Positions 13,281 to 40,141 are shown, counted from the first letter of the stretch. The stretch is 40,141 bases of DNA from a virus (IMGVR_UViG_3300005805_000187:1-40141), one strand, 5' to 3'. The notes: generated by a model not told the origin, from the letters alone. Program-made: numbers and translations.

Positions 13281-13949
13281 GTGGCAAAATCAGTTCAACA
13301 ATTTATAACAAAGATTGGTAAGGGCATGGCAATGTCCAACCAATATGAGGTAAAGTTTGAAATCAATCCAGCTGGATTGAGAGGAGCACTATCTAATGCT
13401 TTAAGCAGTAGAGCGTCATCTGCTTTTTTTGGGGATGGTTTAATTACTTTGTTATGTAACGAAGCTCAGTTGCCTAATGTATCTTCGTTAACCGGACAAA
13501 CAAACGGAGTTTATCTTGGAGAAACACAGGTAAACTATGCTTACGGTAGATTGTTTACTGATATTAGTTTAGGATGGATGTGTGACGTTGACATGACACC
13601 ACTTAAATTTTTACAGGAGTGGCATAATTATATCTATTCTTCTGGACAAGGAAATTTACTATTTTCTACTAACGGAGCACAACTTGAAGATAGTAGTGTA
13701 AGAAGTAATATTTCCAGAGCATTGCCAACAAGGGTTAGATATCCAGATGAATATCAAGCAACAATCAGAATTACTAAACTTGATTTAGGAAAGGGTAACG
13801 ATAGAAAGTCAATGAGTTATGTTTTACTTAATGCCTTTCCTCATAGCATTGATGCCACACCTCTGTCATATGGAGCATCGCAAGTAGTAAATGTCTCAGC
13901 AAGTTTTTACTACTCAAAATATTATGTCTCGTATGACAACGAAGTTTGA
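13281..13949 (+). CDS. Tail-tube-fold baseplate protein (gp54/gp19-like)
   Basis: LLC-x-x-AQLP, F-x-x-W and L-x-NAFP motifs; divergent from gp4. Confidence 0.7.
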   Translation: MAKSVQQFITKIGKGMAMSNQYEVKFEINPAGLRGALSNALSSRASSAFFGDGLITLLCNEAQLPNVSSLTGQTNGVYLGETQVNYAYGRLFTDISLGWMCDVDMTPLKFLQEWHNYIYSSGQGNLLFSTNGAQLEDSSVRSNISRALPTRVRYPDEYQATIRITKLDLGKGNDRKSMSYVLLNAFPHSIDATPLSYGASQVVNVSASFYYSKYYVSYDNEV

Positions 13950-13954
13950 AATTT

Positions 13955-14022
13955 CAAATTTGAATTTTTAATTCCATAAATCGGCAAAAAAATTTTCCGA
14001 CAATTTTCACCTCAAAAAGTTG
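13955..14022 (+). repeat. 68-bp intergenic element, copy B
   Basis: Ungapped alignment with 10237-10304; core TCGGCAAAAAAATTTTCCGA. Confidence 0.7.
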
Positions 14023-14027
14023 AGCTA

Positions 14028-14035
14028 CATAAATA
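14028..14035 (+). promoter_or_regulatory. Late promoter
   Basis: CATAAATA about 20 nt upstream of gp26. Confidence 0.7.
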
Positions 14036-14054
14036 TAGAACTTTTGTTAATATT

Positions 14055-14768
14055 ATGACATTACCAGCACCGTCTACACCAACCTACGAGTTGACTTTAC
14101 CATCAACTGGCAAAAAAATTAAATTTAGACCATTTTTAGTCAAAGAAGAAAAAATTCTTCTTTTGGCAGAACAATCTGAAGATGAAAATGAGATCAAAGG
14201 AGCAATTAAATCAGTTATAGAAAATTGTCTTATAACTAAAGTTAAAATTGAAGATTTGTCTTACTTTGATTTTGAATATATCTTTCTACAACTTCGCGCA
14301 AGATCAGCAGAAGAACATTTAGATCTTGTAATTACATGTAAAGATGACAATAAGACAAAAGTTGATCATAGAATTGATTTGCTTAAAGTTCAGGTAGAAA
14401 AGTCTAAAAAGTCTGATAACAGAATTATGCTATCTGATGATATGGGTATTGTTCTCAGATATCCAGGAATTGATGAATTTGTGAGATTTGCGATGATGGG
14501 CAAAACATTACCTGATAGTGAAGTTGTTGAATATGTCGCATCTAAGGTCAGTCAAATTTTCCAAGGTGAAGATGTTTGGGATTCTGAAGATCTTACACAA
14601 GAAGAAATTATTGAATGGCTGGATAAACTCACCCAGAAACAATTTGTTGAGATTGGAGAATTTTTTGAAAATCTTCCAGTTTTGCGTCATAAATTTAAAG
14701 TCAAAAATCCAACAACTGGTGTTGAAAGTGAGTATGTTCTGGAGGGATTACAGAATTTTTTCGCCTAG
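14055..14768 (+). CDS. gp26: Baseplate hub subunit gp26
   Basis: YELTLPSTG, FRPFLVKEEKILL and EYIFLQLRARS motifs. Confidence 0.93.
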   Translation: MTLPAPSTPTYELTLPSTGKKIKFRPFLVKEEKILLLAEQSEDENEIKGAIKSVIENCLITKVKIEDLSYFDFEYIFLQLRARSAEEHLDLVITCKDDNKTKVDHRIDLLKVQVEKSKKSDNRIMLSDDMGIVLRYPGIDEFVRFAMMGKTLPDSEVVEYVASKVSQIFQGEDVWDSEDLTQEEIIEWLDKLTQKQFVEIGEFFENLPVLRHKFKVKNPTTGVESEYVLEGLQNFFA

Positions 14769-14953: not shown

Positions 14954-17900
14954 TTCCACAGAAAGCTATAAAAAAGTTTTCAAAACCTTCTCATAGAGAG
15001 ATTGCGGTTGGAATTTTAGTATCATATGGTCTATTTCCACAAACTAATGATGGAATAGCGCAAGCAAAAAAATTAATTGAAGGAGCATCTAATTGGATAT
15101 CTCCTTCCAATTTGCCTGAGTATTATGATGGAATTGATAGTGATCTCATTACAGGAAGAGAAACTCCAGGTATTCTGGCAATCAGAGAAACATTAAAGAA
15201 TTTTTACTTCGGAACCCCAACAACTACAATTGACGAAACTCCAATAGAGGAAATTCCAGTTGAAGTAGAAATTAAAGAAGTTGAAAAATTACCAGATCCT
15301 GTTCCGCAACCTGATCCAACACCAGAACCAATAAAGATTGAAATTGAGGTTCCTGTTGAAAAACAGGCAAATGCTCCGCGAAGAATTAAACTTCCTAGAG
15401 CAAAGAATCGTTTTGTTCGTAAAAGAGTAAAACCACTTTCTCAAAGGATGGCAGAATCCTTTGATAAAAATTTACTAGATCCTCTCATAGAGGAAATTAA
15501 AAATCCAAAACCACTACCAGAATCTGAAAAAAAAGGTAAAAAAAGCGGAACAAAAAAGCAAGTATCTAAGAAGATTTTTTCTGGAAAACAATCTGCTGCT
15601 AAATTTTCTTCAGGTGGTGGAGATCTAATTGATAGATCATTTTCCAAAATTAGAGCATCTTTTGGACTCGCAGCTGCGTCAAGAAAAGCATTCAAAGAGT
15701 CCGGTGGTGATCCTCGCTCTCTGAGACGCGGGTATTTCCTCTTCAAGGCACTTGGAGCAGAGTTCGGTGGGGATTTCCGTCGCAGGACCAGAGGCACCTT
15801 CTCGCGCAATCCAGACGCCACTCAGGATCCTGGCATGAGCAAGGAGGAGAGGTTTGCTGAGGTGGTCAAGCGTGATCTTGCCAATCGCCCACAAATGATG
15901 AAGCAGGGCGAAATATTTGATGTAGACAAATATACAGATAAAACTGCCCTACAATCAATTACGGATCTTGCTAAAAAGACAGCAGACAAGATTCTTGGTC
16001 TAGAACCAGGATTTGTTAGAATTGAAAAAAGTCAAACGGAGACATCCAAAGCATTTGTCAAGATTACTCAAAATTTAACTGAAGTCAAGAATACGTTTGT
16101 AAAGACAGCAGATAACTTCAAAGAATTTGTTGACAATAAAGAAGAAGTTATCAAGATTAAAACTAAAATCAGAGAAGTTCTTAGAAAGGAGCAAGAGGAA
16201 AACAAAAGATCTGCTGCTGAACAACAATTAGAGATGCTTAATGATGTTGCTGGAACTACTGATGTAGAGGAAACTGATCAAGGTTTTGATACTGAAGATG
16301 GACAAGATAATGGAGAAGATGGTGGTGGAGGAGGATTTGATTTACCTGATTTCAGAAGACCTAGAATTAGAGGAAGATTGAGATTATTGAGAAGAAGATT
16401 TGGTAGATTTGGTCGTGGAATTAGTAGGAGATTAGGTGGACTGGGTAGAGGATTGGGTAGAATTGGGCGTGGAATTAGTGGATTTGGTAGAGGATTGGGT
16501 GGAGTTGGTAGATTTATCGGTGGTCGTGTAATAGGTCCAGTTATTGGAGACATGTTATTTCCAGAAGGTGCCGGAGTATCTGAACCACAGATGGGACCAG
16601 ATGGTAAATTTAGAACTCCTGATGGTAAATTAGTTCCAGAACCAGGAGCACCTAAACCTAAATCAGTAGCAAGTAGAGTGGGAAATCTTGCGGAATCTGG
16701 TAAAGGTTTAATTGGAAAGGGAAAGGGAGCGATTGGAAAAGTTGCTAGTAAAATCGGATCAAAAGTTGGCGGTGGATTATTAAAATCTATTGGTAAAAAG
16801 ATTCCTGGTGTTGGATTAGTTATTGGTGGACTGGCAGCAGCAGATAGATTTAGTAATGGTGATATTATTGGAGGTATTGGAGAACTTGGATCTGGAATTG
16901 CTTCTCTTGTTCCTGGCGTGGGAACAGCAATATCCCTAGGTATTGATGCCCTGCTGATGGGTAAAGATGTTGCTGCTGAGGCATCTAAACCAGAAGCACC
17001 AACAAAACTATCAAGTGGCGGAATCGTTGCTGGTGAAGCTGGGCATGAAGCAGTAATCCCTCTTACAACGTCAATTGGCAAGAAAGTTGTCAGTGGAATT
17101 AAAGATGATATGGCATCTGGAGGAATGGGAGCAATAGGATCTGTTGCTCCAATGCTGTCAGCAATGGCAGGAATTGTCAGAAATCCTTTATATGGTTCAA
17201 TTCTAGGTCCAGTTGTAAATCCAATACTCAAACCATTGATTTCGGAATATAAAATTCCTGTATTTTCTGGTGAGTTGGGAATGGTAAAAACTTCCAAACT
17301 TCAATCTGCTTCTACTCAAGCAAAAGGAAAATCAGATTCAATGGAGAAGTCTGGCGATAAAGAAGATGGTGGTGGATTCTTTGGGAATTTATTTAAAGGT
17401 ATTGGGGGAGTTTTCAAAGGAATTAGTGGATTTTTTGGTAGATTATTTGGTGGAGATAGAAATAAAAAAAATCGTGGTAGAAACGTTCGCGGTGTTCCCT
17501 TAGGTGCTGGAGAGACGGCTACTGGTTCAACAATTATGAATGGACTCGTAAAAAGAGGGTTTACAAAAGAGGAAGCAGCAGCAATTGTGGGAAATTTATG
17601 GGCAGAGTCTTCATTCAGAACAGGAGCTCTAAATTCAAAATCTGGAGCATTTGGTTTAATGCAATGGGCATATGGAAGAAAAGATACCCTCTTAAGAAGA
17701 GCATCCGAATCTGGTAAGGATCCAACTGATTTAGAGTTTCAATTGGATCATATTGCTTGGGAACTTCGTGGCGGAAGTAAATATGAAACTTCTCAATTTC
17801 AAAAAGCAATGGCATACGGATCTGATGTCGCTTCAAAAACCAGAGGATTTGCCTATGAAGTTGAGAGGGCAAGTGATGCTGAACTATCTTCTTCAATGCC

Positions 17901-26722: not shown

Positions 26723-26845
26723 ATGAAAGTTCCAAACTGGCAACACCATTCCAAGAAAGAACAGAAACGCTCCCTTAAACCTCAAATGTTGAGGGCAGCA
26801 AAGGCTAAACGTCAAGCACTCAAACGTAAGTTGTCGCTGGTTTAG
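26723..26845 (+). CDS. 40-aa basic peptide (not in ORF track)
   Basis: GGAG RBS; MKVPNWQHHSKKEQKRSLKPQMLRAAKAKRQALKRKLSLV*. Confidence 0.65.
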   Translation: MKVPNWQHHSKKEQKRSLKPQMLRAAKAKRQALKRKLSLV

Positions 26846-26908
26846 CTATCTGGTGAAAGCACCCGACTCATAATCGGATATAGGTGGGTTCAATCCCCTC
26901 AACCAGCA
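26836..26908 (+). tRNA. tRNA-Met/Ile2 (CAU)
   Basis: GCTGGTT/AACCAGC acceptor stem, CT-CAT-AA loop, TTCAA T-loop; lacks the initiator GGG/CCC stem. Confidence 0.85.
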
Positions 26909-26995
26909 TTTGGACTCCAGCAAGGTGCTTGCTAGGATATAAACAACTGACGCCTCCCTCTGCGGAAAGAGTAACCATCAGGTCAGTGTCCAAAT
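26908..26995 (+). ncRNA. Unidentified structured RNA between tRNAs
   Basis: ATTTGGAC/GTCCAAAT closing stem with AGCAAG/CTTGCT, ACTGAC/GTCAGT and CTCT/AGAG helices. Confidence 0.65.
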
Positions 26996-27000
26996 TATAT

Positions 27001-27082
27001 GTCGATGTGGCGGAATTGGTAGACGCGCTGGGTTTAGGTTCCAGTGAATTAATTCGTGGAGGTTCAAGTCCTCTCATCGACA
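27001..27082 (+). tRNA. tRNA-Leu (UAG)
   Basis: GTCGATG/CATCGAC acceptor stem, TT-TAG-GT loop, variable arm. Confidence 0.95.
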
Positions 27083-27085
27083 TTT

Positions 27086-27172
27086 GGAGGATTGGCTGAG
27101 TGGCTTAAAGCAGCAGTTTGCTAAACTGCCGAAGGGGCAACCTTTCCGTTGGTTCAAATCCAACATCCTCCG
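27086..27172 (+). tRNA. tRNA-Ser (GCU)
   Basis: GGAGGAT/ATCCTCC acceptor stem, GCT anticodon, long variable arm, G73. Confidence 0.95.
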
Positions 27173-27178
27173 CCTCAT

Positions 27179-27253
27179 TCTGAGGTAGCCAAGTGGTAAG
27201 GCAGCGGGTTTTGGTCCCGCCATTCGTGGGTCCGAATCCTACCCTCAGAACCA
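27179..27253 (+). tRNA. tRNA-Gln (UUG)
   Basis: TCTGAGG/CCTCAGA acceptor stem, TTG anticodon, encoded CCA. Confidence 0.92.
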
Positions 27254-27254
27254 A

Positions 27255-27327
27255 GGGTCTGTAACTCAGTTGGTAGAGTAGCGGGCTTTTAACCTGTAAG
27301 TCGTCGGTTCGATCCCGACCAGACCCA
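27255..27327 (+). tRNA. tRNA-Lys (UUU)
   Basis: GGGTCTG/CAGACCC acceptor stem, CT-TTT-AA loop. Confidence 0.95.
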
Positions 27328-27329
27328 TT

Positions 27330-27401
27330 GGAACCGTAGCTCAGCGGTAGAGCACTCGGCTGATAACCGAGCGGTCACAAGTTCAAATCTTGTCGGTTCC
27401 A
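27330..27401 (+). tRNA. tRNA-Ile (GAU)
   Basis: GGAACCG/CGGTTCC acceptor stem, CT-GAT-AA loop. Confidence 0.95.
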
Positions 27402-27402
27402 C

Positions 27403-27431
27403 TTGACAACCATCCATTCACATGGTATGAT
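27403..27431 (+). promoter_or_regulatory. sigma70-type promoter inside the tRNA cluster
   Basis: TTGACA-N17-TATGAT, with TG upstream of the -10. Confidence 0.8.
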
Positions 27432-27446
27432 TGTCCTATCCCGAAA

Positions 27447-27521
27447 GGGACTGTCGCCTATTGGTTAAGGCCCACTGCTTATAACGGTGTGAACTGAGTT
27501 CAATTCTCAGCAGTCCTACCA
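27447..27521 (+). tRNA. tRNA-Ile (UAU)
   Basis: GGGACTG/CAGTCCT acceptor stem, CACTG-CT-TAT-AA-CGGTG anticodon arm, encoded CCA. Confidence 0.9.
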
Positions 27522-27522
27522 A

Positions 27523-27605
27523 GCGAGTATGGTGGAATCGGTAGACACACCAGACTTAAAATCTGTTGGGCATTGCCCGTGGGAGTTCAAGTCTCCCTAC
27601 TCGCA
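27523..27605 (+). tRNA. tRNA-Leu (UAA)
   Basis: GCGAGTA/TACTCGC acceptor stem, CT-TAA-AA loop, variable arm. Confidence 0.95.
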
Positions 27606-27639
27606 TCCACACTAAATAACATTGTGTGGAAATTCAAAC

Positions 27640-27906
27640 ATGAAATACCATCTATCACAATCTTATGTCTTCTACATGGGAGAAGTGGTGCGTATGTATT
27701 TCATACAGGGTATTCCTTATACATTTGATGAACTTCCTCAAATTATACAGGATCACCCATCAGTTCAAACAGAAGCATTGTCCAATCGTGACTTTGATGA
27801 TGAAGATATGTATTTGGCATCTAATTATTTGGTGACAGAAGCAGCACATCCACTTATGTTTGAACTGGAAGTAGACGATCCAGAACTTTTACCTAAAGAT
27901 GATTGA
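27640..27906 (+). CDS. Conserved cyanophage hypothetical protein
   Basis: ATG 27640 (MKYHLSQ...VRMYFIQGIPYTFDEL); CTAAATA late-like box upstream. Confidence 0.7.
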   Translation: MKYHLSQSYVFYMGEVVRMYFIQGIPYTFDELPQIIQDHPSVQTEALSNRDFDDEDMYLASNYLVTEAAHPLMFELEVDDPELLPKDD

Positions 27907-28399
27907 TGAATTTCGTAATCGCTTAATTGGCACATTTGAGAACAAGCGTCAAGCATTTCGTAATCCTTCGCGGTTTGCGTATGTTAGAATTGTTCACAAG
28001 GATGTAGACGGATCTCTGATCTATGGCGAGCAAGCATATCACTACATGCTACATTCTCCTTATCGGAAGTTTGTCCTGGAACCAGTTGAAGATAACGGAA
28101 GACTAGTAATTAAAAATTACTCAGTCGTTGATCATAATCTTCCTCTTACGAAAGATAATTTATCTTATCGTGATGGTTGTGACATCTATTTTAATCTAAT
28201 TGATGATGTCTTTGTTGGATCCTCAGAAGGATGTAATTGTTATGTCATGAGAGGTGAGAAGAAAACATTCTTCTCTACAAAGACACAACTTGGACCAAAC
28301 TATTATCATGTCATTGATCGTGGTTTTGATCCAGAAACTAAAAAGCAAATCTGGGGAACTGAATATGGTCCCTTTGAATTCTCTAAAGTCTCTATATAA
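27899..28399 (+). CDS. cpcT: T-type phycobiliprotein (bilin) lyase, CpcT/CpeT family
   Basis: F-x-N-x-x-QA-x-x-NP, EQAY...PYR, GC, DRGFDPET-x-x-QIWG and GPFEF motifs. Confidence 0.92.
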   Translation: MIDEFRNRLIGTFENKRQAFRNPSRFAYVRIVHKDVDGSLIYGEQAYHYMLHSPYRKFVLEPVEDNGRLVIKNYSVVDHNLPLTKDNLSYRDGCDIYFNLIDDVFVGSSEGCNCYVMRGEKKTFFSTKTQLGPNYYHVIDRGFDPETKKQIWGTEYGPFEFSKVSI

Positions 28400-28419
28400 T
28401 TTGGAAGGCGGTAAAAGTT

Positions 28420-28890
28420 ATGGACTACCCAGACCCGTATAAACCAGTTCTAGTATTGAATAGTTCTTACGAACCAATCAACATCACAAATTGGAAACGA
28501 GCAATCGTTCTACTTCTCAAAAATAAAGCACATATGCTCTCTAAGAGAGTGATCAGGTTGGTAAATTACATTGCTCTCCCTCTTAAAAAGATGAGAGTAA
28601 CTCAACCAACTCGTAATATGATCTACCAGCGAGACGACAACAAATGTCAGTATTGTGGATCTACTAGACATCTTACGATTGATCATGTAATTCCACGATC
28701 TAAAGGTGGTGGAGATACTTGGGAAAATATGGTGGTGGCTTGTTCCTCATGTAACATGAAAAAGAGTGATAAATATCTTGAACATACTGGCATGAAATTG
28801 ATGAGGAAACCTAAAGCACCAATCAATGCTATGTTCCTAACCTTAGAAAAATCTAAGGATCCGGAGTGGACAGAATACGTCTTCGTATGA
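28420..28890 (+). CDS. HNH endonuclease (McrA-like)
   Basis: VLVLNSSYEP, RD-x-x-x-CQYCG, TIDHVIPRSKGG and WEN-x-V-x-AC-x-x-CN motifs. Confidence 0.93.
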   Translation: MDYPDPYKPVLVLNSSYEPINITNWKRAIVLLLKNKAHMLSKRVIRLVNYIALPLKKMRVTQPTRNMIYQRDDNKCQYCGSTRHLTIDHVIPRSKGGGDTWENMVVACSSCNMKKSDKYLEHTGMKLMRKPKAPINAMFLTLEKSKDPEWTEYVFV

Positions 28891-28896
28891 TATAAT
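28867..28896 (+). promoter_or_regulatory. Putative promoter for the second tRNA block
   Basis: TGGACA-N18-TATAAT with extended -10 (TGA-TATAAT). Confidence 0.55.
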
Positions 28897-28943
28897 ATGA
28901 GAGGGAGTACAAAAGGTCCGAATAGCAGGACGCCCTCTTTCTT

Positions 28944-29015
28944 GCCTAATTAGCTCAGTGGTAGAGCACTCGCCTTGTAAGCGAGCGGTCGTCAGTTCAA
29001 GTCTGACATTAGGCT
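28944..29015 (+). tRNA. tRNA-Thr (UGU)
   Basis: GCCTAAT/ATTAGGC acceptor stem, CT-TGT-AA loop. Confidence 0.95.
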
Positions 29016-29017
29016 CT

Positions 29018-29059
29018 CGCTTTCACATGGACTGGAAATATCTGGTCGTCGTGATAGCG
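29018..29059 (+). ncRNA. Unidentified rod-shaped hairpin RNA
   Basis: CGCTTTCAC/GTGATAGCG outer stem and GACTGGA/TCTGGTC inner stem. Confidence 0.45.
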
Positions 29060-29065
29060 TTTATT

Positions 29066-29156
29066 GTAGGTGCCAAAACCGCTCCTCATCCCGAGTATTC
29101 TGTGGGTGAGTGAATGTAAAGAGTGGGGACATAGGTAAAGTTCCCAACGCCTACCA
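29066..29156 (+). ncRNA. Compact manA-like structured RNA
   Basis: GTAGGTG/CGCCTAC closing stem; GTGCCAAAACCGCTC and AATGTAAAGAG segments recalled from the manA RNA motif; tRNA-cluster context. Confidence 0.65.
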
Positions 29157-29158
29157 TA

Positions 29159-29231
29159 GGGGAATTAGCTCAGTTGGTAGAGCAGCGCCTTTGCAAGGCG
29201 AAGGTCAGCGGTTCAAGTCCGCTATTCTCCA
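29159..29231 (+). tRNA. tRNA-Ala (UGC)
   Basis: GGGGAAT/ATTCTCC acceptor stem with G3:U70; TGC anticodon. Confidence 0.95.
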
Positions 29232-29232
29232 T

Positions 29233-29275
29233 GGGTAGTTTGCGCTGGAGCTGATAATCCAGAATGCCGCTACCC
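29233..29275 (+). ncRNA. Unidentified hairpin RNA with anticodon-like loop
   Basis: GGGTAG/CTACCC and CTGGA/TCCAG stems; loop GCTGATAA. Confidence 0.5.
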
Positions 29276-29280
29276 TTTAA

Positions 29281-29352
29281 TCCTCTGTAGCTCAGCGGTA
29301 GAGCGGTCGGCTGTTAACCGATTGGTCGCAAGTTCGATCCTTGCCGGGGGAG
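29281..29352 (+). tRNA. tRNA-Asn (GUU)
   Basis: TCCTCTG/CGGGGGA acceptor stem, CT-GTT-AA loop, G73. Confidence 0.95.
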
Positions 29353-29369
29353 TTATTTCTTATATAAGT

Positions 29370-29540
29370 ATGAAAATTAATCTTTGGTACTGCGAATCTT
29401 TCAAACAATGGAGGTGGACTCTTACAGATGATCATCGTCCAATTTTGAGGCAAGAATCCGGTCAACGACCATTTCTTCGTGATGCTATGGAAGATATAGC
29501 AAATACTGTTGAATATATGTTAGAAGCTCAACAATCATGA
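29370..29540 (+). CDS. Small hypothetical protein
   Basis: ATG 29370 (MKINLWYC...QWRWTL); the track's start lies inside tRNA-Asn. Confidence 0.7.
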   Translation: MKINLWYCESFKQWRWTLTDDHRPILRQESGQRPFLRDAMEDIANTVEYMLEAQQS

Positions 29541-30253
29541 ATATAGATAATTTTTATTCAGAAAATTCTATTGATGATTGGAAATTAATATTGGGAGAAA
29601 ATCTTCATTATCATGCTGGGTCGCAATCGGATAAAGATATATTTGAGCAAGCAGTAAAAAATCTTTTTTGTTACATACCAAAAAAATCTAAAATTCTGGA
29701 TTGTGGTTGTGGATGGGGAGGACCAGCAAAATTATTGATAAATGAATTGGAGTGCGATGTAACTGGAGTCACAATATCAAAACAGCAGCAAAAATTTATT
29801 GATCAATTTGTAGTTTATTATGCTGATTTAAATCAATACATTCCCCATGAATATTATGATATAGCGTTATTTGTAGAATCATTTTGTCATCTAAAACAAC
29901 CAAAACAAGTACTACATAATTTTAAAAATAAAGTAGGTAAAATAATTATAAAAGATTATCTTTGGGATTTTGATTGGTATAATGATATTTGGGGCATGTA
30001 CATGAGAAGTAAATCATCGTACATAAATTTATTAGAATTTTGCGAATATGAAATCATTTCTATTGAAAATGATAAAACAACGGATATTAAATCTACATGT
30101 AAATATTGGTTTAATAATTTTAAATTGCTAGATAAGAATAAAATTACTGGTCAATTAAAAAATTTGTATAATTTGTGCGCTAGTGTTTTAGCACAAGATT
30201 CTTCAGAAAACAGTTTTATTGATACAGTTGTCATAGTTGCTAGACCAGTATAA
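29537..30253 (+). CDS. Class I SAM-dependent methyltransferase
   Basis: LHYH, ILDCGCGWGG, VTGVTIS-x-x-Q and ESFCH motifs. Confidence 0.88.
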   Translation: MNIDNFYSENSIDDWKLILGENLHYHAGSQSDKDIFEQAVKNLFCYIPKKSKILDCGCGWGGPAKLLINELECDVTGVTISKQQQKFIDQFVVYYADLNQYIPHEYYDIALFVESFCHLKQPKQVLHNFKNKVGKIIIKDYLWDFDWYNDIWGMYMRSKSSYINLLEFCEYEIISIENDKTTDIKSTCKYWFNNFKLLDKNKITGQLKNLYNLCASVLAQDSSENSFIDTVVIVARPV

Positions 30254-30256
30254 ATA
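30249..30256 (+). promoter_or_regulatory. Late promoter
   Basis: Perfect TATAAATA about 30 nt upstream of the giant ORF. Confidence 0.85.
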
Positions 30257-30287
30257 ACTCAGAAGAATTACCAGCAGCGCAATAATT

Positions 30288-33200
30288 ATGTCTCTTACAA
30301 GACTTGATAACCTGTATTCCAGCAAAACAGGAAAATATCTCTATGTCTCTCCTGATGACTTTAACGCTACAGATACCTTAGATAATAGAGGAAACTCTCC
30401 TCTACGTCCTTTTAAGACTATTCAGAGAGCATTCTTAGAGGTAGCACGTTTCTCGTATCAGCCTGGCGCTAATAATGATCGTTTTGATCAATTTAGCATC
30501 ATGCTTATGCCTGGTGATCACTATATTGATAACAGACCTGGACTGGTAAACTACAGTATTGGTGGTAATAATGTAGATAGAAATAGATATTATGATGCTG
30601 GTAATCTGATTGAGTCTAACAAGCAGTTCATCGCATATGAAGCATATGCTAAAATGCTTGATAATAACCCAGGATTCTCTACACCAACTGGGTTAGCAAT
30701 TGATTGTATTGATGATGTACTGGATATTCTTGACGCTGTAATTTATAACATTAAATTTGGCGGTAATGATAAAACTTTTGACGCAGCATTGGTATATCAA
30801 AATGATCCTGACCTGATTGCGAATGAACAGGCAGAATCACTTGAAGTTTATGCTAACGCTCTAGAAATTGTTAAGAAAGTAATTGCTCAGGCACCAGTAG
30901 AAGTACTGTATCAGGATTCATATTTAACTGAACTGAATATTGAAGAACCATTTGTTCAGGAATATGATGGAACAATTTTAACTGGTCCTACTGTTTATGG
31001 TGATTTGGGAATTGATGTTCCTTACGGTCAAGTAGAAACTTGTGCTGATGTGAAATCTGCCATTGATGTTCTTTTTGCTATTATTGAAGATGGTATCAAC
31101 CAGAATCTTGATCTAGAAGATCGTCAGGAACCAGAAACATTTGGTGAATTACCTGTATTCAATTTTGATCAGGAAACTGGTCAATGGAACGATACTTCAA
31201 TCGTTGATCTAAGAAGTCCTGATAACATTTATTGGAAGTTTAATGCTTCTACTGGTGGTGCTATTGTTCCTAGGGGTTGCTCACTGGTTGGTTACGATCT
31301 TCGTAGAACAATTGTAAGACCTCTGTATGTTCCTGATCCTGCTGATTCAAATCAGGGAAGAACATCAATCTTTAATCTAACTGGTGGATGCTACATCTGG
31401 CAGTTTACAATCAAGGACGGAGATCTTTCAAGTAATTCTCCTCTGTTTGATGCTGCTGATAATGTAGGTAAAGTCTACTACCAGAAAGGCAATGTGTCTA
31501 CTCTGGCAGTTCCTGAGTATTCGCACCACAAGATTTGTATCATGGAATATGCTGAGCTGAAAGAGCTTGACGCATATTATGAGAAAGTTGGTATTGCTTT
31601 CTCCAAGTATCAACCAACAATGGATGATGCTGGCGAATTTGATTCTCTGGTTCAGGAGAACAGAATCGTTGGTCCTCTGTCTGATACTAGATCAATTGAA
31701 AGTATTAAGGCAATTGACACAAATCTTGGTCAACCAAATCAAAAATTAGTTCTTCAAGTTACAACTAAAATTGATCACGGTTATTTCAAAGATCAGTATG
31801 TTGCTATTCTGAATACTGGTCTTGATGAAGAAACAAACGGAACATTTAAGGTTGCCAGTATCAGTCAGACAAATCCAAGACTGTTTACCTACGAGATTCC
31901 TGGTAAAGTTGCTGCTGGTCTGGGTCTAACTGCGAACCAAACCTATCAGGTTGGTGCTGGACTGAGCAACAATGCTGTAGCACAGGCAGAGATTGACTCT
32001 GTTGAATCAGCATCGCCATATGTGTTTAACTGCTCTATCCGCTCTACATGGGGTATCTGCGGTATGTGGGCGGACGGTGCGAAGGCAACTGGATTTAAAT
32101 CCATGGTTGTCGCACAGTACACTGGTGTATCACTACAGAAAGACGATAGAGCATTCATTCGCTACGATGAGTTCACTAACACTTGGAATCAGGCATCACT
32201 AAGCGATTCATTTGCCACTGTTCCTTATCACACCAAAGGTGACGCATATTGGAAAGATGATTGGAGAAACTTCCACATTCGTGCTTCTGATGACGCATTC
32301 GTTCAGTGTGTGTCTGTGTTTGCTGTGGGATTCTTTGACCACTTCCTGATGGAGTCAGGTGGTGACATGTCCATCACCAACTCCAACTCAAACTTTGGTA
32401 ATACTTCACTACACTCTGTAGGATATAAAGGATTCTCCTTCAACCAGGATAAAGGTGGATACATCACTGATATTATTCCACCTCAGGAATTGTCTGGTGG
32501 ATATGGTGCGAATCCAAACATTGCTTCAACAAACTCAACTAAGATTCCTTATTATCCAATTGACATTGTAGCGTCAAACGACTTAGATAATAAAACTAAA
32601 TTATTCCTTGGATCTGATTCTGTATATGATCCAGCATCTAGACCAGCTGCTACACTGAATGGATATAGAATTGGTGCTAGACCTGATGAAAAACTATTCC
32701 TGAAATTGGAAGAAGAATCACCAGGATCTGGAGAAAATTTCTCGGCAACTTTAACTCCTACAGGTGTTGAAACATTTACGGTTGGGGTTGATTTCTTAAA
32801 TCCAACAGGAATTTCAATCAATCAGAAGGCACAAGATGCTGCCAACCTCATTAATGTAAACAAGGAGTTTATTCAGGATGAAGTTTATGGATACATCACA
32901 ACAAAGTATCCTCAACTTCTAACAGATCCAGATCTTACAATGTCTCTCTGCCGTAGAGACGTAGGATATTATGTTGATGCTGTTGTTCAAGACCTGAAAC
33001 TTGGTGGAAACATCAACACTATTCAGGCAGCAGAAGCATATTTTGTTGGCGGTCAGTTAACCTATATTCAAAACGAAAGAGATCAAACAATTGATGCTCT
33101 CGGTGTGACTAGAGATCTGTGTATCGCAGCAATGCGTAACTGGGATTATCTGCTAACTGGTTGTTCATCCGTAAACAACAGCAGCATTATCACAGTTCCC

Positions 33201-36200
33201 ACAACACAGGGTCTGGTTGTTGGTATGAAGGTCGCTTCATATAATAGTATCAATCCATCAAATAACTCAGAACCAGCTGGAACACCATCTACCACAATTC
33301 CTGCCAACTCTTATGTTGTTGAAATTATTGATGGAACTTCATTTAAGATTGGTGAAAAGGGAGAATGGAAATTTGGAACCTATTCATATGATCCATCTCC
33401 AACAAACAAAGTAGCAACTCAAACTGTTACTGCTAGTGGACCAGGAACAGGTCTTAAACTGTTCTTTACAATGAGAGATGAAACTGCCTCAACATCACAA
33501 GGAAATGTTGTTGCTGTAAGAGATGGTATTTTCTCGACCAAGAGAACTGTATATGATGACACTGTGATTCAAGATGTCATCAATCTTTCTTCTGGCGAAA
33601 CAGAGTGTAGCGATGTTGAGTCAATTATTGCTGGATATTTTGTTGATATTGCTACTATTCTTTCTGCTCCATTTGGTGAAGATGGTGTTGAACGAATTGA
33701 ACCAGATACAGATTTTTCTGCTCTATCCAAGAGGGCAACTATCTTTACTGTAACTGGTGGAAATCCACATGAGATGGAAACTGGAACTCCTATAAGATTA
33801 GTTCCAAAACCAAGACCAGGAACAAATCCGGATCCAAGAGTTGTTAGACTTCCAAAAGGATTTAATACAAATACTAAGTATTATGTAATTTCACCTGGAA
33901 GAAGAACTTCTCCTGAAGATTATTCTTCCACTACCGCTTTTAATGGTGAGGATCAAACTGTATTTTTACTTGCTTCAACTCTTGAGAACGCAAGAGCTGG
34001 TAATTATATCTATTCTCCAGAAACAGAAGCAATTGATCCAGACGTAATTATTGAAATTAATAAGTATATTATTGATCAATCTTATGATCTGTATCAGTAT
34101 AAAGGAAATGTTGCTATTGGTGCCGGTAGTGGCGTCATTGAAACAGATCTTTCACACTCGTTTGATCTTCCTGTTGATGGAATTGAACCACAGACTGTAT
34201 TCTTCCGTCAGATTGACGTAGATACTCCTCTACCAAGCAGAACTATTCAAATTGGAGCAACTTCTTTCCAAGTTCCCTTAGATCCACAAGATGTATTCTA
34301 TACTCGTTATATTAATAATAACTTGTTCGCCATATATACAACATTTGAAGATGCTAGAGATGATAACAATAGAGTTATTTTAAATGGATCACAGAAGTTT
34401 TTAGTCTTTTCTAACAAAAGATTTTCACCACTTAAATTTGATCCATCACCAATTAGTTACGGTGTCAGAGTTAATCAAACTGGTCAGTGGTATCTACAAG
34501 TTAAAGATGAAACAACTTCACCAACTAATATCGTAAGAAGACTTACAATTCCTGAAGATACTACTTACTCTGGATCTTCTCCATCCGCTACAAGAAGTAA
34601 TGACACATTCTTTGAGCGTGTTAATGATAAGAGAATTGCTGAGGATAGAGTTTATAAACTCAGATATGTAATTCCTAGATATCTTGAAACCGTTAGAGAT
34701 CCTCTGAATGGATTTGTACTTAAAGTCAGAACAGATACTAAGAGAAGACTAAGACCACAGAAATTAGTTCTGAAACCAGTTAATAATAGTTTCCATAGTA
34801 CTAACGAAAGTTATACTTCAACTTCTGTTGCGACTTTCATCAACAATGGCACATTTGATCCAACAGGTGTATTTGTAAATACAGCAGAAAAACTGGGTAG
34901 ATCACAAACCAGTTATACAACTCAGAGTGTAACACCAGTTTACGATCCTTACATTAACCCTAAAATTGTTGAAACTAAAGATGGTAAAATTGCCTTCTCC
35001 ATTCAGGCAGCAAAAGTTGTAACTGAAAATAGAATTGAAGATGGGCAATCTGTAGGATACAAATATCTTGAAGTTGTTGCTTTTGACCATACAATCAACA
35101 ACCAGGCAATCAAAAATGAGAGACTCACAGTTGTTCAAATTACCGCTCCTGATGGTATTGGATTTACCGCAAATGCCACTCAGAATACTCCTAGCAACCT
35201 GATTCAGTGGAGTGGTAATAGTTCTGGCACTGGATACTTACATGGATACTTTACAACATCAAATATAACTGCCAATCCTAAGACCAAAGATCCACAGAGA
35301 TACTATCTAATTATTAAAAATATTACTGATGGGGAAATTAATTTTAACTCCATCATTCCAACAACGTTCTTCCAGGGTGGAACAACTCCAACTGGAGCAC
35401 TTGTAACAGCAGATCTGATTGGAAAACCGGATAGTATTGGAGATCCAAAAGGAAAGAACAAAGCTGCGAGAGAAGATTATCTCTACTCAGTACAAGGATC
35501 TAATGTATATACTCTTGTTCCTGGTGATGTTATCACTGATGACACTGGCAATGACTACTACATTGATTCTGTTGATGATGTTGGCGAAATTGAAGACACT
35601 TTCTATATCTTTGATATTCAAGAGATCAAAGAAAGAATTCCTGGTCAGCAAGATGGTATTTACTATCTGATTTGTCTGAAAGGAAACGTATCACCATATC
35701 CAACTGGTCCTGGTGTTGGTGAGAACTTCAGAAACTTCAAGTTCTCGCAACCAATTTCTTATCTGTACCCACAAGATTACAAGAACGATCCATTCTGGTT
35801 CAAGCAGATTGATTCTAACCTGAATGATCCCCCAGCAACATATTCTGCTGCTGACAACTATGTTCATGGTCTGGTTACAGTCAATGATGCTCGTTACAGT
35901 GAGACTAAGGAAGCAGTCCAATTTATGATTGATAATCCTGTTCTTGCTGAGTACAACTATGATAATGATATTCAGGCAGGAATTGATGCCAGACTGAGAG
36001 CACAGTCTGGCAACGCTGTTGCTGGTGCTGAGGACCGCAAGATTCCTATCAAGGGTATTAATCCGTACCCAACTGATTCCAGACTCTATGTGGAACTTCG
36101 TAGACCATCTATTGCTCGCTCTGGAAACCACACCTTTGAGTATCTTGGATTCGGTCCTGGTAACTACTCAACTGGTTTCCCACTACGTCAGGAAGTTATT

Positions 36201-39200
36201 CTTACCGATAAGCAAGACTTCTATGCCCAGGCAAAGAGGGAAAATGGTGGTATTGTATTCTATACTGGTCTAAATTCCAATGGCGATCTTTATATTGGTA
36301 ACAAGAAAATCAACGGTATTACTGGTGAAGAGTCATTCTTAGAATCAGCAGAATTGATTGGTTCTGGAGATGAGGACGATCAAGTTGGAGATACACTTGT
36401 AACTACATTTGAATCTCCAGTAACCTTTAATAATAAAATTACTGTAAATGGAGCTGCTAATTTTACAAAACCAGTAACAATTGCTGTTGACGCAATTGAT
36501 GCTCTTCCTCCGCAGCAATCACTTAGAATTCAAAGTTTAATTGATTCTGTAAATCTTGGCGAAGACATTACTCTTTCAAGATCTTCATTCTCAAATAGAG
36601 CATTAGGCGACATTACACTGAGTAAAAATAGAATTCAGTCAGCAATTTATGGCATTAATCCTAGAGGAAATACCGCTTTTTCTGGACAGGAATATTCCAT
36701 TAGAACACATTATGCTGTTGAATCTGATGAAAATGGAGCATTTACAGTTCCAAGACCAAGTAATATAACACCAGAACAATCACCATTAATTTTTGATTCT
36801 GGAAATCCACTTTCTTTATCTTCAAATAAATTATTTTCAAATCAACAAGTATATTATGGAAATATTAATAATGTTCCATCTCCCGGAGATTTATTACTTA
36901 AAGGAAAGGAAGTAGGAAAATCTGGATCCTTGGGGTGGATATATGCCAATACATTCTTAGACATTCCTAATAGTCTTATAGAATTGGTAGCAACTCCAAA
37001 GAGAAATGAATTAGACCAATTAGTTATTGGAGCTGGTACTGGACCCGAACTAACCGCAACTAATTTAGTTAGATTAATTTGGAAAACGGTTGATGGAGCT
37101 ACAACTACAAATAATCAAGTATCTCAAAATTATGGATTAACTGTTAATTCTTTAATTCGTATTGTTGGAATAACTGGAGATTTGTCTAATGTTGCTAACG
37201 GAACATTTACAATAAATGATGGAACATTTTCATTAAATTCATCGTTTATTGATATTGAAGTTAATTCAAATATCGCATCCGTTGATATACTAGAAGATTG
37301 GTCCACCTATCAACCAGACGCGATAGTATCAATATCAAATTCTTCTTGGAAAGAAGTTGGCGTAATCGGATCAGAAGCAATTAGAACTGAAACTAATAAT
37401 TTAGGTGAATACAAAGTTGGTATTAACACAGTTGCTAGATCTCCTCATAGTGCTTATTTGTCTGGATTTGTTGATTCTTTAACAACGGATCCAAGAGCAA
37501 ACTTAGATGTTGTTGGTAATATTTTTATTAGTGGAAGAAATATTTCTAACTATAGATCACAATCAAATCCATCTTTAAGAACCGTAACCAATTTAAATAA
37601 TGCTGTTCTTGTTGGAGGAGATGCTTATAATCCAAATAATTCCTCTGTCTTTAGAATTTCAACAACAAATAATGGTCGTGTTGGCATTAATTTGACAAAC
37701 GATCAATTAAATGGAACTGCGGACGCTACAATCTATAATAGAGCATTCTCTGTACAAGGAAGTTCGACAATTAGTGGAAATTTACGGGTTGAGCAAAACG
37801 TAGAAATAAATGGAGCACCAAACTCAACTTATAATGGAACTTATACAACCGCTAATTTAACTTCCAGAGCAACGACATTTAATTTATTGAATACTGCTAC
37901 TGGTAATAATGTAACTACGTTGAATATGGGTGGATCAATGACATCCATTTCGATGTTCCATAATACGACTGGATCGCAGACAATAAACATCGGTACAAAT
38001 GCTGCTAATGATACTTCATCTACAAATACTACAACATTAAATATACACACTTCTTCTCGTAGTTCTATTGTAAATCTTGGAACTGTATCTAACGTTCCTG
38101 GAAATACATCAAGAATTACAATTGGTGGAGCTATCCAAACTAGGAATAATTCTGAATTTTTAATTAAAAACTTTAGAACTACTTTAGAGGGTAAATTAAT
38201 TATTCGTGGTAATGGAAGTGATACTGGAGATGTTGGATATATTGAGTCCGAAGGAGTTCAAACATTTAATATGTTCCCAGAAGGAGTTAAAACTCTTAAT
38301 ATTGGACAGAGAGTAGGAACTCTTAATATTGCTGGATCTTCTGGAACTACTACTATTAGAAACAGTTTAAATGTTAAAGGATCGGCAAAAATTGAATCTG
38401 ATATAACTTTAGATGGTGGATTGAGAAACAGCAGTGTTGGCATTGTAAGAAATGTATTTGGTACTATTTCCGTAATTTCTGCCACTAGAACAAACAATGT
38501 TACAACATTAATTACAGCGTCTCCACATGGATTGAGTAATGGACAACAAATTACGGTTTCTCTAAGTGATGAATCTTTCTCAACCACAGGAACTGTAGTT
38601 GCTACTGTTGTTAACTCAACCACAATTACATATCCCAATTCTGGACTTAATCAATCCACTATTACACTAACTGGAAGAATTTTAACTGGAATTGGAAATA
38701 CACAATCTGTTGGAAATCTTGAAGAGAATAATTTAAACGTCGATTATTACGCAGTTTCCAATCAAATTGCTCCACCTAGAAGAATAAGCACGGTTAACTC
38801 TGAATATAAATTACTGTTTGATTTTAATTATTTTTCCGAGAATGATCCAGTTGAATTTTTAGATGTTGGTAATTTAACATCAGTTGCTGTTGGAACGGTT
38901 TATTATGTTCTTTCTTCTGATGCTACTGGATTGATTTTAAAAACTTCTCTTGGTGGAAATACACCAATAACTATAGGTCTTCAGTCTGGATCAACTGATG
39001 CTGGAAATGCTAGAATGATATTAGCATTTACTTCTGTAGATACGCAAGGAGATTCTCCATGGGGAGGTGCTACATTCTTAAATCCAGATGGTAGTTATAG
39101 ATTGTATGTCAACAATCCTTCGGGACTTGCGGCAAACCAATATATTTTAATTAATACTGAAGTATTATTCATACAATCAGATCCTTCACCTCTTTTCCCA

Positions 39201-40141
39201 TATTATGTTGATGTTTTGAGAGGAAGAGATGGAACAGTACCCATAGCTCATCCCGATGGAAGTAGAATTTTCTTACTTTCTAGAGAAGTTGGAGCTACTT
39301 ATATTTTCCCATCTCCAATTACTGGAACACAAACTAGTTTAAATTTGGGTGAATTTACTGCCCCAATTAGAATTGGAGATTTGTTTAGATTAAATCCGGG
39401 AACAACTGCTGATGAATGGGTTAGAATATCTACAGTTAATTTATCTAATGCTCAAAGATTAACAGTAAATAATGGTGATTTTGGAAACGAGATTGATCCT
39501 AGAGATCCAATTGAAGTATTTAAGGTTGTTAGTACAACTGGTAATACTAGAATTATTGGCGATTTGACAATTGGATATGACACTAATTTGACATCTTTAT
39601 TAGACGATGATGTTGTAAATACAACAAATATTTCACAATTAACCGGACTTAATTCAAATTTATCAACTGGTGGTGGATTAAGTGAGACTGGTGGTGGAAA
39701 TCTTAGAGTTCACAACTCCGTTGAAATTTCCGGTAATCAAATTTCTACCTTACCGGGGAGACAGTATTTCTTAATTACAAATGGACAAGTTCCAAGATTT
39801 TTTGTTGAAACTAATTCTGGAGACACTACATTATTTGGAGGAGCAGACTTAAGAATTTTTGCTGATAATTATTATACTACTGGTGGATGGACAAAAACTA
39901 GAACAAATTCGGCAACTAATCTTAAATTTGAAGTTCTTGGTGATACTGGTAATACAAAAATTGGCGGAACATTGAGGGTTGGTAATGATTTCGATATCGG
40001 AACACTTGTCGATAGTGAAATAATTGAAGGTGGAAGTAATTTCTTTACTTCTAGATTCTCTGTTGATGCTCAAACTGGATCCACGATTGCTGGACAATCT
40101 TTAACAATTACTGGACAACTTAGCGCCACTCCAAGTGCTGG
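30288..40141 (+). CDS. Giant putative virion/tail-fibre protein, partial (>3280 aa), with two phycobiliprotein-like domains
   Basis: ATG 30288 MSLTRLDNLYSSKTGKYLYVSPDD...PFKTIQRA. The same frame reads open at spot checks and at the window end (...GQLSATPSA). The track would have listed it had a stop occurred. Confidence 0.88.
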   Translation, partial: MSLTRLDNLYSSKTGKYLYVSPDDFNATDTLDNRGNSPLRPFKTIQRAFLEVARFSYQPGANNDRFDQFSIMLMPGDHYIDNRPGLVNYSIGGNNVDRNRYYDAGNLIESNKQFIAYEAYAKMLDNNPGFSTPTGLAIDCIDDVLDILDAVIYNIKFGGNDKTFDAALVYQNDPDLIANEQAESLEVYANALEIVKKVIAQAPVEVLYQDSYLTELNIEEPFVQEYDGTILTGPTVYGDLGIDVPYGQVETCADVKSAIDVLFAIIEDGINQNLDLEDRQEPETFGELPVFNFDQETGQWNDTSIVDLRSPDNIYWKFNASTGGAIVPRGCSLVGYDLRRTIVRPLYVPDPADSNQGRTSIFNLTGGCYIWQFTIKDGDLSSNSPLFDAADNVGKVYYQKGNVSTLAVPEYSHHKICIMEYAELKELDAYYEKVGIAFSKYQPTMDDAGEFDSLVQENRIVGPLSDTRSIESIKAIDTNLGQPNQKLVLQVTTKIDHGYFKDQYVAILNTGLDEETNGTFKVASISQTNPRLFTYEIPGKVAAGLGLTANQTYQVGAGLSNNAVAQAEIDSVESASPYVFNCSIRSTWGICGMWADGAKATGFKSMVVAQYTGVSLQKDDRAFIRYDEFTNTWNQASLSDSFATVPYHTKGDAYWKDDWRNFHIRASDDAFVQCVSVFAVGFFDHFLMESGGDMSITNSNSNFGNTSLHSVGYKGFSFNQDKGGYITDIIPPQELSGGYGANPNIASTNSTKIPYYPIDIVASNDLDNKTKLFLGSDSVYDPASRPAATLNGYRIGARPDEKLFLKLEEESPGSGENFSATLTPTGVETFTVGVDFLNPTGISINQKAQDAANLINVNKEFIQDEVYGYITTKYPQLLTDPDLTMSLCRRDVGYYVDAVVQDLKLGGNINTIQAAEAYFVGGQLTYIQNERDQTIDALGVTRDLCIAAMRNWDYLLTGCSSVNNSSIITVPTTQGLVVGMKVASYNSINPSNNSEPAGTPSTTIPANSYVVEIIDGTSFKIGEKGEWKFGTYSYDPSPTNKVATQTVTASGPGTGLKLFFTMRDETASTSQGNVVAVRDGIFSTKRTVYDDTVIQDVINLSSGETECSDVESIIAGYFVDIATILSAPFGEDGVERIEPDTDFSALSKRATIFTVTGGNPHEMETGTPIRLVPKPRPGTNPDPRVVRLPKGFNTNTKYYVISPGRRTSPEDYSSTTAFNGEDQTVFLLASTLENARAGNYIYSPETEAIDPDVIIEINKYIIDQSYDLYQYKGNVAIGAGSGVIETDLSHSFDLPVDGIEPQTVFFRQIDVDTPLPSRTIQIGATSFQVPLDPQDVFYTRYINNNLFAIYTTFEDARDDNNRVILNGSQKFLVFSNKRFSPLKFDPSPISYGVRVNQTGQWYLQVKDETTSPTNIVRRLTIPEDTTYSGSSPSATRSNDTFFERVNDKRIAEDRVYKLRYVIPRYLETVRDPLNGFVLKVRTDTKRRLRPQKLVLKPVNNSFHSTNESYTSTSVATFINNGTFDPTGVFVNTAEKLGRSQTSYTTQSVTPVYDPYINPKIVETKDGKIAFSIQAAKVVTENRIEDGQSVGYKYLEVVAFDHTINNQAIKNERLTVVQITAPDGIGFTANATQNTPSNLIQWSGNSSGTGYLHGYFTTSNITANPKTKDPQRYYLIIKNITDGEINFNSIIPTTFFQGGTTPTGALVTADLIGKPDSIGDPKGKNKAAREDYLYSVQGSNVYTLVPGDVITDDTGNDYYIDSVDDVGEIEDTFYIFDIQEIKERIPGQQDGIYYLICLKGNVSPYPTGPGVGENFRNFKFSQPISYLYPQDYKNDPFWFKQIDSNLNDPPATYSAADNYVHGLVTVNDARYSETKEAVQFMIDNPVLAEYNYDNDIQAGIDARLRAQSGNAVAGAEDRKIPIKGINPYPTDSRLYVELRRPSIARSGNHTFEYLGFGPGNYSTGFPLRQEVILTDKQDFYAQAKRENGGIVFYTGLNSNGDLYIGNKKINGITGEESFLESAELIGSGDEDDQVGDTLVTTFESPVTFNNKITVNGAANFTKPVTIAVDAIDALPPQQSLRIQSLIDSVNLGEDITLSRSSFSNRALGDITLSKNRIQSAIYGINPRGNTAFSGQEYSIRTHYAVESDENGAFTVPRPSNITPEQSPLIFDSGNPLSLSSNKLFSNQQVYYGNINNVPSPGDLLLKGKEVGKSGSLGWIYANTFLDIPNSLIELVATPKRNELDQLVIGAGTGPELTATNLVRLIWKTVDGATTTNNQVSQNYGLTVNSLIRIVGITGDLSNVANGTFTINDGTFSLNSSFIDIEVNSNIASVDILEDWSTYQPDAIVSISNSSWKEVGVIGSEAIRTETNNLGEYKVGINTVARSPHSAYLSGFVDSLTTDPRANLDVVGNIFISGRNISNYRSQSNPSLRTVTNLNNAVLVGGDAYNPNNSSVFRISTTNNGRVGINLTNDQLNGTADATIYNRAFSVQGSSTISGNLRVEQNVEINGAPNSTYNGTYTTANLTSRATTFNLLNTATGNNVTTLNMGGSMTSISMFHNTTGSQTINIGTNAANDTSSTNTTTLNIHTSSRSSIVNLGTVSNVPGNTSRITIGGAIQTRNNSEFLIKNFRTTLEGKLIIRGNGSDTGDVGYIESEGVQTFNMFPEGVKTLNIGQRVGTLNIAGSSGTTTIRNSLNVKGSAKIESDITLDGGLRNSSVGIVRNVFGTISVISATRTNNVTTLITASPHGLSNGQQITVSLSDESFSTTGTVVATVVNSTTITYPNSGLNQSTITLTGRILTGIGNTQSVGNLEENNLNVDYYAVSNQIAPPRRISTVNSEYKLLFDFNYFSENDPVEFLDVGNLTSVAVGTVYYVLSSDATGLILKTSLGGNTPITIGLQSGSTDAGNARMILAFTSVDTQGDSPWGGATFLNPDGSYRLYVNNPSGLAANQYILINTEVLFIQSDPSPLFPYYVDVLRGRDGTVPIAHPDGSRIFLLSREVGATYIFPSPITGTQTSLNLGEFTAPIRIGDLFRLNPGTTADEWVRISTVNLSNAQRLTVNNGDFGNEIDPRDPIEVFKVVSTTGNTRIIGDLTIGYDTNLTSLLDDDVVNTTNISQLTGLNSNLSTGGGLSETGGGNLRVHNSVEISGNQISTLPGRQYFLITNGQVPRFFVETNSGDTTLFGGADLRIFADNYYTTGGWTKTRTNSATNLKFEVLGDTGNTKIGGTLRVGNDFDIGTLVDSEIIEGGSNFFTSRFSVDAQTGSTIAGQSLTITGQLSATPSA

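Follow-up and report, generated by a model that had tools for sequence, protein, structure and literature searches.

What a cyanophage gains from a phycobiliprotein lyase gene is the question raised by the viral DNA IMGVR_UViG_3300005805_000187:1-40141, a stretch of 40,141 nucleotides (the window) that encodes a T-type lyase of the CpeT/CpcT family upstream of a giant tail-fibre-like protein. T-type lyases are site-specific for the β-155 position of phycobiliproteins (PMC2327270). The cpeT gene ranks among the commonest auxiliary genes of cyanophages; it was reported in 12 of 16 genomes with its role unresolved (PMC3037559), and its role in phages has been called unresolved or host-directed (PMC3037559, PMC13041748). 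In the literature searched, no demonstrated substrate was found for any phage copy of cpeT. A sequence-only reading of the window had proposed that the lyase is a virion-maturation enzyme acting on two acceptor-like sites of the giant protein. Homology, co-occurrence, the retained β-155-like cysteines and homologues found in virions speak for this proposal, whereas gene adjacency and late timing do not. On balance, we consider it probable that the lyase chromophorylates the β-155-like cysteines within domains of the giant tail protein.

A T-type lyase with intact catalytic positions

The lyase open reading frame (ORF) scores 116 bits against the Pfam family CpeT (PF06206; E-value 1.8e-33, curated cut-off 21 bits) and also matches phrog_488 (E-value 1.5e-38) and CpcT from Nostoc (PDB 4o4o; E-value 2.7e-19). 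Residues Y55, R56, C94, C114, R118, D140, and W152 align with Y65, R66, C116, C137, R141, D163, and W175 of Nostoc CpcT, and Y55 and D140 are invariant in all 14 aligned phage sequences. In CpcT, Tyr65 and Asp163 are reportedly catalytic, and the other aligned residues are reported to have roles as well (Zhou 2014). By this alignment, the ORF encodes a T-type bilin lyase in which the catalytic positions are preserved.

Nostoc CpcT (All5339), which acts on Cys155 of CpcB and PecB, thus shares PF06206 and seven aligned positions with the phage lyase, but the phage enzyme is shorter, has changed the positions of H33 and R68, and has a virion-protein domain as its proposed acceptor. CpeT from cyanophage P-HM1 (PDB 5hi8; phrog_488) belongs to the same family (E-value 6.3e-5), whereas the lyase of the window is of the longer S-PM2/S-CAM1 type (approximately 40–46% identity). 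Elsewhere, a PcyA-like bilin reductase directly follows cpeT in P-SSM7 (13407-14535), and a cpeT gene was found in P-SSM4 (16633-17073), although a 2010 review reports P-SSM4 as lacking cpeT.

Phycobiliprotein β-like domains in the giant tail protein

The giant protein, 3451 residues long in its full-length form (P0001), gave no match in a Pfam scan of the entire ORF. Single-sequence searches of the PDB returned only phycoerythrin β at an E-value of 0.25 for domain 1 and no match for domain 2. With a profile of 24 repeats, all 60 listed PDB matches were phycobiliproteins, the first 23 being β subunits (best E-value 1.2e-6). The profile places the first conserved cysteine on β-84, and a second, non-significant stretch puts the other cysteine on β-155. 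The AlphaFold model of domain 1 (predicted local distance difference test, pLDDT, 87.7) best matches phycoerythrin β (5aqd_M; Z-score 15.1, root-mean-square deviation 2.8, 149 aligned residues, chain residues 29–184), and every listed Foldseek row was a phycobiliprotein. The model therefore contains a globin-type core superposable on phycobiliprotein subunits. For domain 2, a single-sequence fold prediction (pLDDT 31) was discarded, and the assignment is made by sequence. Precomputed PF00502 matches exist for eight of 23 homologous giant proteins, and the multi-repeat protein P0027 exceeds the PF00502 cut-off as a whole protein (61 bits). We conclude that the giant ORF carries two phycobiliprotein β-like domains and not just bare motifs.

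The domains share with CpcB and CpeB (PF00502) the globin core and the β-84-like and β-155-like cysteines. They differ by their low identity (approximately 18%), by lacking the X/Y helices, and by occurring as repeats inside proteins of 900–8500 residues, and insertions can separate the last helix from the rest of the domain. The alignment to β subunits begins only at chain residue 29–33. Since the N-terminal extension for α-β oligomers, whose helices drive oligomerisation of the host subunits (PMC2327270), is missing, the domain represents a β core and not an antenna subunit. No α partner and no phycobiliprotein linkers were found in the window. The insertions before the last helix span approximately 137 residues in the window, 1230 residues in P-SSM4, and about 2700 residues in S-CAM7. 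The domain tolerates such insertions as though it were a node at which the fibre loops outward.

Where do these domains occur? A tblastn search with domain 1 matched 53 of 50,697 phage records, all of them named cyanophages; the matched genes bear the annotations gp7 baseplate wedge, short tail fibre, or virion structural protein. ORF104 and ORF112 of S-SCSM2R, detected in purified virions and called "large exoproteins" (PMC12801897), contain the domains. The wider family comprises 1512 representatives at an E-value of ≤0.001, some with more than 30 matched stretches. In the best 149 of these 1512, the β-84-like cysteine is present in all and the β-155-like helix was detected in 40. The giant proteins P0024-P0172 hold up to 34 tandem repeats that retain only the β-84-like cysteine, and a single repeat pattern is matched by approximately 2800 stretches in IMG/VR. 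The BBAG globins, which bind bilins, contain CxRD and occur outside antennae (PMC10151467), resemble the phage domains but are cellular stand-alone proteins, and the accessible part of their description mentions neither a β-155-like site nor a virion location.

The fold likeness to host subunits could also mean that the domain mimics a phycobiliprotein within the cell or on its surface, docking on parts of the host antenna, lyases, or NblA, or serving as a bilin sink, instead of carrying pigment on the virion. Apart from that likeness, nothing points to mimicry directly. The model, which aligns from chain residue 29, lacks the N-terminal oligomerisation helices, the domains belong to baseplate and fibre proteins that occur in virions, and related repeats occur in a large phage genome (G012, described below) in which no psbA was found. 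We therefore regard mimicry as very unlikely.

Candidate acceptor cysteines

The sequence-only reading had pointed to two C-x4-S-x-I-x3-F sites in the giant ORF. Exactly two matches are present, at Cys252 (31041) and Cys1107 (33606), and they prove to be the ends of the two phycobiliprotein-like domains. In 5000 shuffles of the giant protein, the motif occurred on average 0.005 times and never twice, a test that overstates the rarity because the motif was defined once the sequence had been seen. The exact motif fits just six of the 45 full family repeats; what characterises the family is the domain as a whole. Each domain of the window also contains a β-84-like cysteine (Cys140 and Cys888), which the earlier summary did not include. 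Across the 45 full repeats, the β-84-like cysteine is kept in 38 and the β-155-like cysteine in 35.

Co-occurrence of lyase and domain

We compared 26 isolate genomes, hand-picked and non-random, of which six came from the list of lyase matches and the rest were chosen to span the group. Lyase and domain were both found in 12, the domain only in one (S-SKS1), the lyase only in none, and neither in 13, so that the domain is present in 12/12 lyase-bearing but 1/14 lyase-free isolates. The podovirus S-B28 is counted among those with neither; without S-B28, S-CBWM1, and HTVC008M, the counts for both, lyase only, domain only, and neither become 12/0/1/10. Outside the 26 isolates, S-SSM5 and, by tblastn, ACG-2014f carry both, and S-T4, chosen for its domain, carries the domain only. 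All 12 lyase-bearing isolates retain at least one β-155-like cysteine. P-SSM4 has lost the β-84-like cysteine in three of three domains and has kept one β-155-like cysteine, 1230 residues after its N-half.

In a gp32 tree of 24 isolates, three independent pairs that differ in the lyase lie on well-supported branches; two to three of them agree with the association and none disagrees. The naive Fisher p-value of 2.7e-6 reflects mostly shared ancestry, since only these three independent pairs differ in the lyase. The co-occurrence put forward as a check by the sequence-only reading is accordingly borne out in one direction, from lyase to domain. It is consistent, yet statistically not independent of descent.

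Phage S-type lyases have also been described (PMC10665884). The phages carrying them (S-CBWM1, S-CREM2, S-B68, and S-N03) gave no domain match, and we rejected the idea that such phages possess β-84-only domains. Co-occurrence in IMG/VR was uninformative because most contigs with gp32 are short. Among 29 IMG/VR contigs, selected for their length out of the first 80 of the 160 loci that match the pattern, one of them more than 90% complete, we found a T-type lyase in one, a bilin reductase in one, and an S-type lyase in none. In seven of the 29, a β-155-like helix lay in the examined stretch and no lyase was found, the longest of these contigs being 52% complete.

Bilin supply and host context

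According to the gp32 tree, S-PM2 is the closest isolate of the window phage, and the gp32 of the IMG/VR record G001 is almost identical to that of the window phage. G001 encodes PebS (E-value 1e-68 to 2vck; L212:10304-10924) beyond the tail genes, and no heme oxygenase was found in this 76% complete record. Because such a near relative encodes PebS, phycoerythrobilin is the likely pigment. Bilin reductases are present in all six lyase-bearing phages isolated on Prochlorococcus versus none of the seven isolated on Synechococcus.

The sole phycobiliprotein of Prochlorococcus MED4 has a single site, Cys82 (bioRxiv 2020.03.31.018853). The T-type lyase of P-HM2 would therefore be without a β-155 acceptor in this host, and the virion proteins of P-HM2 show four β-155-like cysteines.

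The 328-kb genome G012 (92% complete) has adjacent hemO and pcyX genes and a 3849-residue protein with 18 CxRD repeats bearing the β-84-like cysteine (C1:163526-164702 and 315550-325524, respectively). In G012, no β-155-like cysteine was detected, and psbA, T-type lyase, and S-type lyase were not found. This one genome fits a rule in which the domain goes with bilin synthesis and the T-type lyase with the β-155 site. Phage hemO-pcyX cassettes represent bilin synthesis without a known acceptor, and bilin production by viruses that infect non-photosynthetic hosts has been described as an unsolved puzzle (PMC11480375).

Gene order around the lyase

The window covers part of the genome of a T4-like cyanomyovirus and includes gp32, gp5, genes for the baseplate and the tail tube, and 11 tRNAs. 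Its features are listed in Table 1. The sequence-only reading placed the end of the lyase about 1.9 kb before the giant ORF; the measured distance is 1888 bases, which hold an HNH gene, three tRNAs, a 57-residue ORF, and a methyltransferase, none of which the reading had mentioned. S-PM2 has the same order, from gp5 through a small ORF, cpeT, and small genes to the giant short-tail-fibre gene. This proximity is specific to the lineage: the lyase and the domain gene are 1.7 kb apart in S-PM2, the only one of the 12 lyase-bearing isolates with less than 2 kb, and 30–58 kb apart in the other 11. We therefore rejected gene adjacency as general evidence for a lyase-acceptor pair.

Table 1. Features of the window, with positions counted from its first nucleotide and cysteines numbered within the giant protein.
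Feature	Position	Strand	Basis or remark
CTAAATA, late-promoter-like box preceding the two-gene unit	27612..27618	+	Predicted; box also in G001
phrog_4134 ORF, 88 residues, function not assigned	27640..27906	+	E-value 1.9e-39; overlaps lyase start
T-type phycobiliprotein lyase (CpeT/CpcT family), 166 residues	27899..28399	+	Pfam, phrog_488, CpcT alignment
TATAAATA, canonical late-promoter box for the giant ORF	30249..30256	+	Predicted by sequence match; absent from the sequence-only reading
Giant tail-fibre-like virion protein	30288..40141	+	Runs off the window; 3284 residues visible; phrog_4527 short tail fibre, E-value 0
Phycobiliprotein-β-like domain 1, residues ~94-278, without N-terminal X/Y helices	30567..31121	+	Profile, model
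Cys140, β-84-like site, domain 1	30705..30707	+	Kept in 6/10 close orthologues
Cys252, β-155-like site, domain 1; best candidate acceptor	31041..31043	+	Kept in 10/10 close orthologues
Domain 2, N-terminal part, residues ~841-953	32808..33146	+	Sequence; holds Cys888
Cys888, β-84-like site in CxRD motif, domain 2	32949..32951	+	Kept in 10/10 close orthologues
Insertion of ~137 residues splitting domain 2 just before the last helix	33147..33557	+	Boundaries approximate
Last helix of domain 2 with Cys1107	33558..33662	+	Sequence likeness to PDB β-subunit ends
Cys1107, β-155-like site, domain 2	33606..33608	+	Kept in 7/10 close orthologues; sequence-based assignment

The phrog_4134 ORF holds the equivalent position before cpeT in S-PM2 and is a possible partner of the lyase. 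An HNH gene comes after the lyase, and the 11 tRNA genes, including a tRNA-Ile with a TAT anticodon, cluster at 26836-29352 around the lyase unit. The S-adenosylmethionine methyltransferase at 29537-30253 lies immediately 5' of the giant ORF and has a G+C content of 0.27 versus 0.38. It looks exchangeable, as S-PM2 carries a 2-oxoglutarate-Fe(II) oxygenase in the same slot.

Promoter-like boxes and expression timing

The late-like CTAAATA noted before the lyase unit by the sequence-only reading is indeed present, with its TAAATA core located 27 bases 5' of the ATG of the phrog_4134 ORF (27640). It is one base off the late consensus NATAAATA (PMC2984593); G001 retains it in the corresponding position, and S-PM2 has the canonical TATAAATA in its place. 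Both CTAAATA sites in the window sit 27–28 bases 5' of a start codon.

Published RNA-seq data of two phages do not bear out cpeT as a late gene. P-HM2 expresses cpeT in the middle class but its two domain genes late (PMC5082946), and no TAAATA was found in the 1500 bases upstream of cpeT. In S-SSM5, sampled from 2 h, cpeT falls in an early cluster with a near-flat log2 RPKM (reads per kilobase per million) of 9.4–10.3, whereas genes for the capsid and the baseplate are expressed late (PMC9723779). We therefore dropped the general argument from late expression. Nor do these data show the early-only expression that the sequence-only reading had named as refuting it. It is plausible for an enzyme to be made ahead of its substrate, and T4 gp31 and gp63 provide precedents.

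Alternatives to the proposed pairing

Besides gene order and timing, several results weigh against the proposed pairing. The best Foldseek E-value for domain 1 was only 2e-3, with none under 0.001, and domain 1 reached 14.9 bits against PF00502, below the gathering cut-off of 22.2. As single domains, eight of 24 rows matched PF00502 at an E-value of ≤0.1 (best 2e-4), none over the cut-off. Y28 and F58 of the lyase replace H33 and R68 of CpcT. The sign test on the three independent contrasts gives p-values of 0.25–0.5. P-SSM2 and S-SSM7 possess a bilin reductase and neither lyase nor domain. Bilin attachment to the phage domains is a probable inference.

Several of the same observations would suit a domain that was taken over from phycobiliproteins as a structural module and carries no pigment, with cysteines serving disulfides or structure and a link to cpeT by shared descent. 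Conservation of the domain cysteines in close orthologues is not specific, because five cysteines outside the domains are equally kept in 10/10. Some repeats are without both cysteines (P0023), very large insertions split the domain beside the β-155-like site, and just three contrasts are independent. The two domain cysteines have, however, been lost independently of each other (P0002, P0010-P0012, P-SSM4, and G012), which is ill-suited to a fixed pair and disfavours a fixed disulfide between them. Furthermore, 1450 of 1485 N-halves in the 149 distant proteins keep the β-84-like cysteine, 1377 of them as CxRD, and G012 has its repeats together with a hemO-pcyX pair and no psbA found. Taken together, we find a purely structural role quite improbable.

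The main rival explanation leaves the domains pigmented and reassigns the lyase: host lyases or spontaneous reactions would load the virion domains, and the phage lyase would be a host-directed auxiliary or a bilin carrier feeding host lyases. S-SKS1 and S-T4, which keep both cysteines and in which no phage T-type lyase was found, argue for host loading and against the pairing. Expression of cpeT with the middle (P-HM2) or early (S-SSM5) genes fits it as well, and no lyase is needed for bilin binding by BBAG globins (PMC10151467). On the other hand, none of the 12 lyase-bearing isolates is free of the domain, MED4 offers no β-155 acceptor, and the G012 repeats, for which no lyase was found, have β-84-like sites only. 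P-HM1 CpeT is reported to bind phycoerythrobilin and to help host CpeS in vitro, with no transfer of the bilin to host CpeB (Gasper 2017), which is compatible with loading either by the phage lyase or by the host. The phage lyase may have a host-side role, but we consider host loading of the virion domains unlikely.

A proposed route to a pigmented virion

In the proposed pairing, the lyase would be produced from middle infection onward and would bind a bilin of host or phage make, with phycoerythrobilin as the likely pigment. The bilin would then be ligated to the late-made tail protein before assembly, at the β-155-like cysteines Cys252 first and Cys1107 second, and host S-type lyases or spontaneous attachment could fill the β-84-like sites. 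In hosts that themselves encode a T-type lyase, the phage lyase would be dispensable, as would fit S-SKS1 and S-T4. The finished virion would carry pigment.

What would a virion do with a pigment? Light is required for the adsorption of P-HM1, P-HM2, and S-PM2, and P-SSM2 adsorbs also in the dark, though less well; receptors or tail fibres that are sensitive to light have been held responsible for the light-dependent adsorption of cyanomyoviruses (PMC6628666). The domain is present in P-HM1, P-HM2, and S-PM2 and absent in P-SSM2, a comparison of three phages against one. Possibly, but still doubtfully, the pigment lets the free virion sense light and gate adsorption. This purpose is a speculative first guess and the least supported step. 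Low-level transcripts of P-HM2 in a separate dark-infection study weigh against light-gated adsorption. Photoprotection may be an alternative use of the pigment.

In the openly accessible literature, to which the search was confined, we found no description of phycobiliprotein-like domains in phage virion proteins. The component families are known, but we know of no precedent for a virion-borne biliprotein with a phage lyase. A phage-encoded acceptor would give cpeT and phage bilin synthesis a directly testable target. If the pairing is true, cpeT, and perhaps pebS, pcyA, and pcyX, would be virion-maturation genes rather than host-metabolism genes. Only tentatively do we extend this to the view that most marine T4-like cyanophages and the large hemO-pcyX phages build pigment-bearing virions that sense light and gate adsorption, with phage lyases and bilin reductases serving to chromophorylate tail and baseplate domains, which would offer a candidate explanation for the light-dependent adsorption of cyanomyoviruses.

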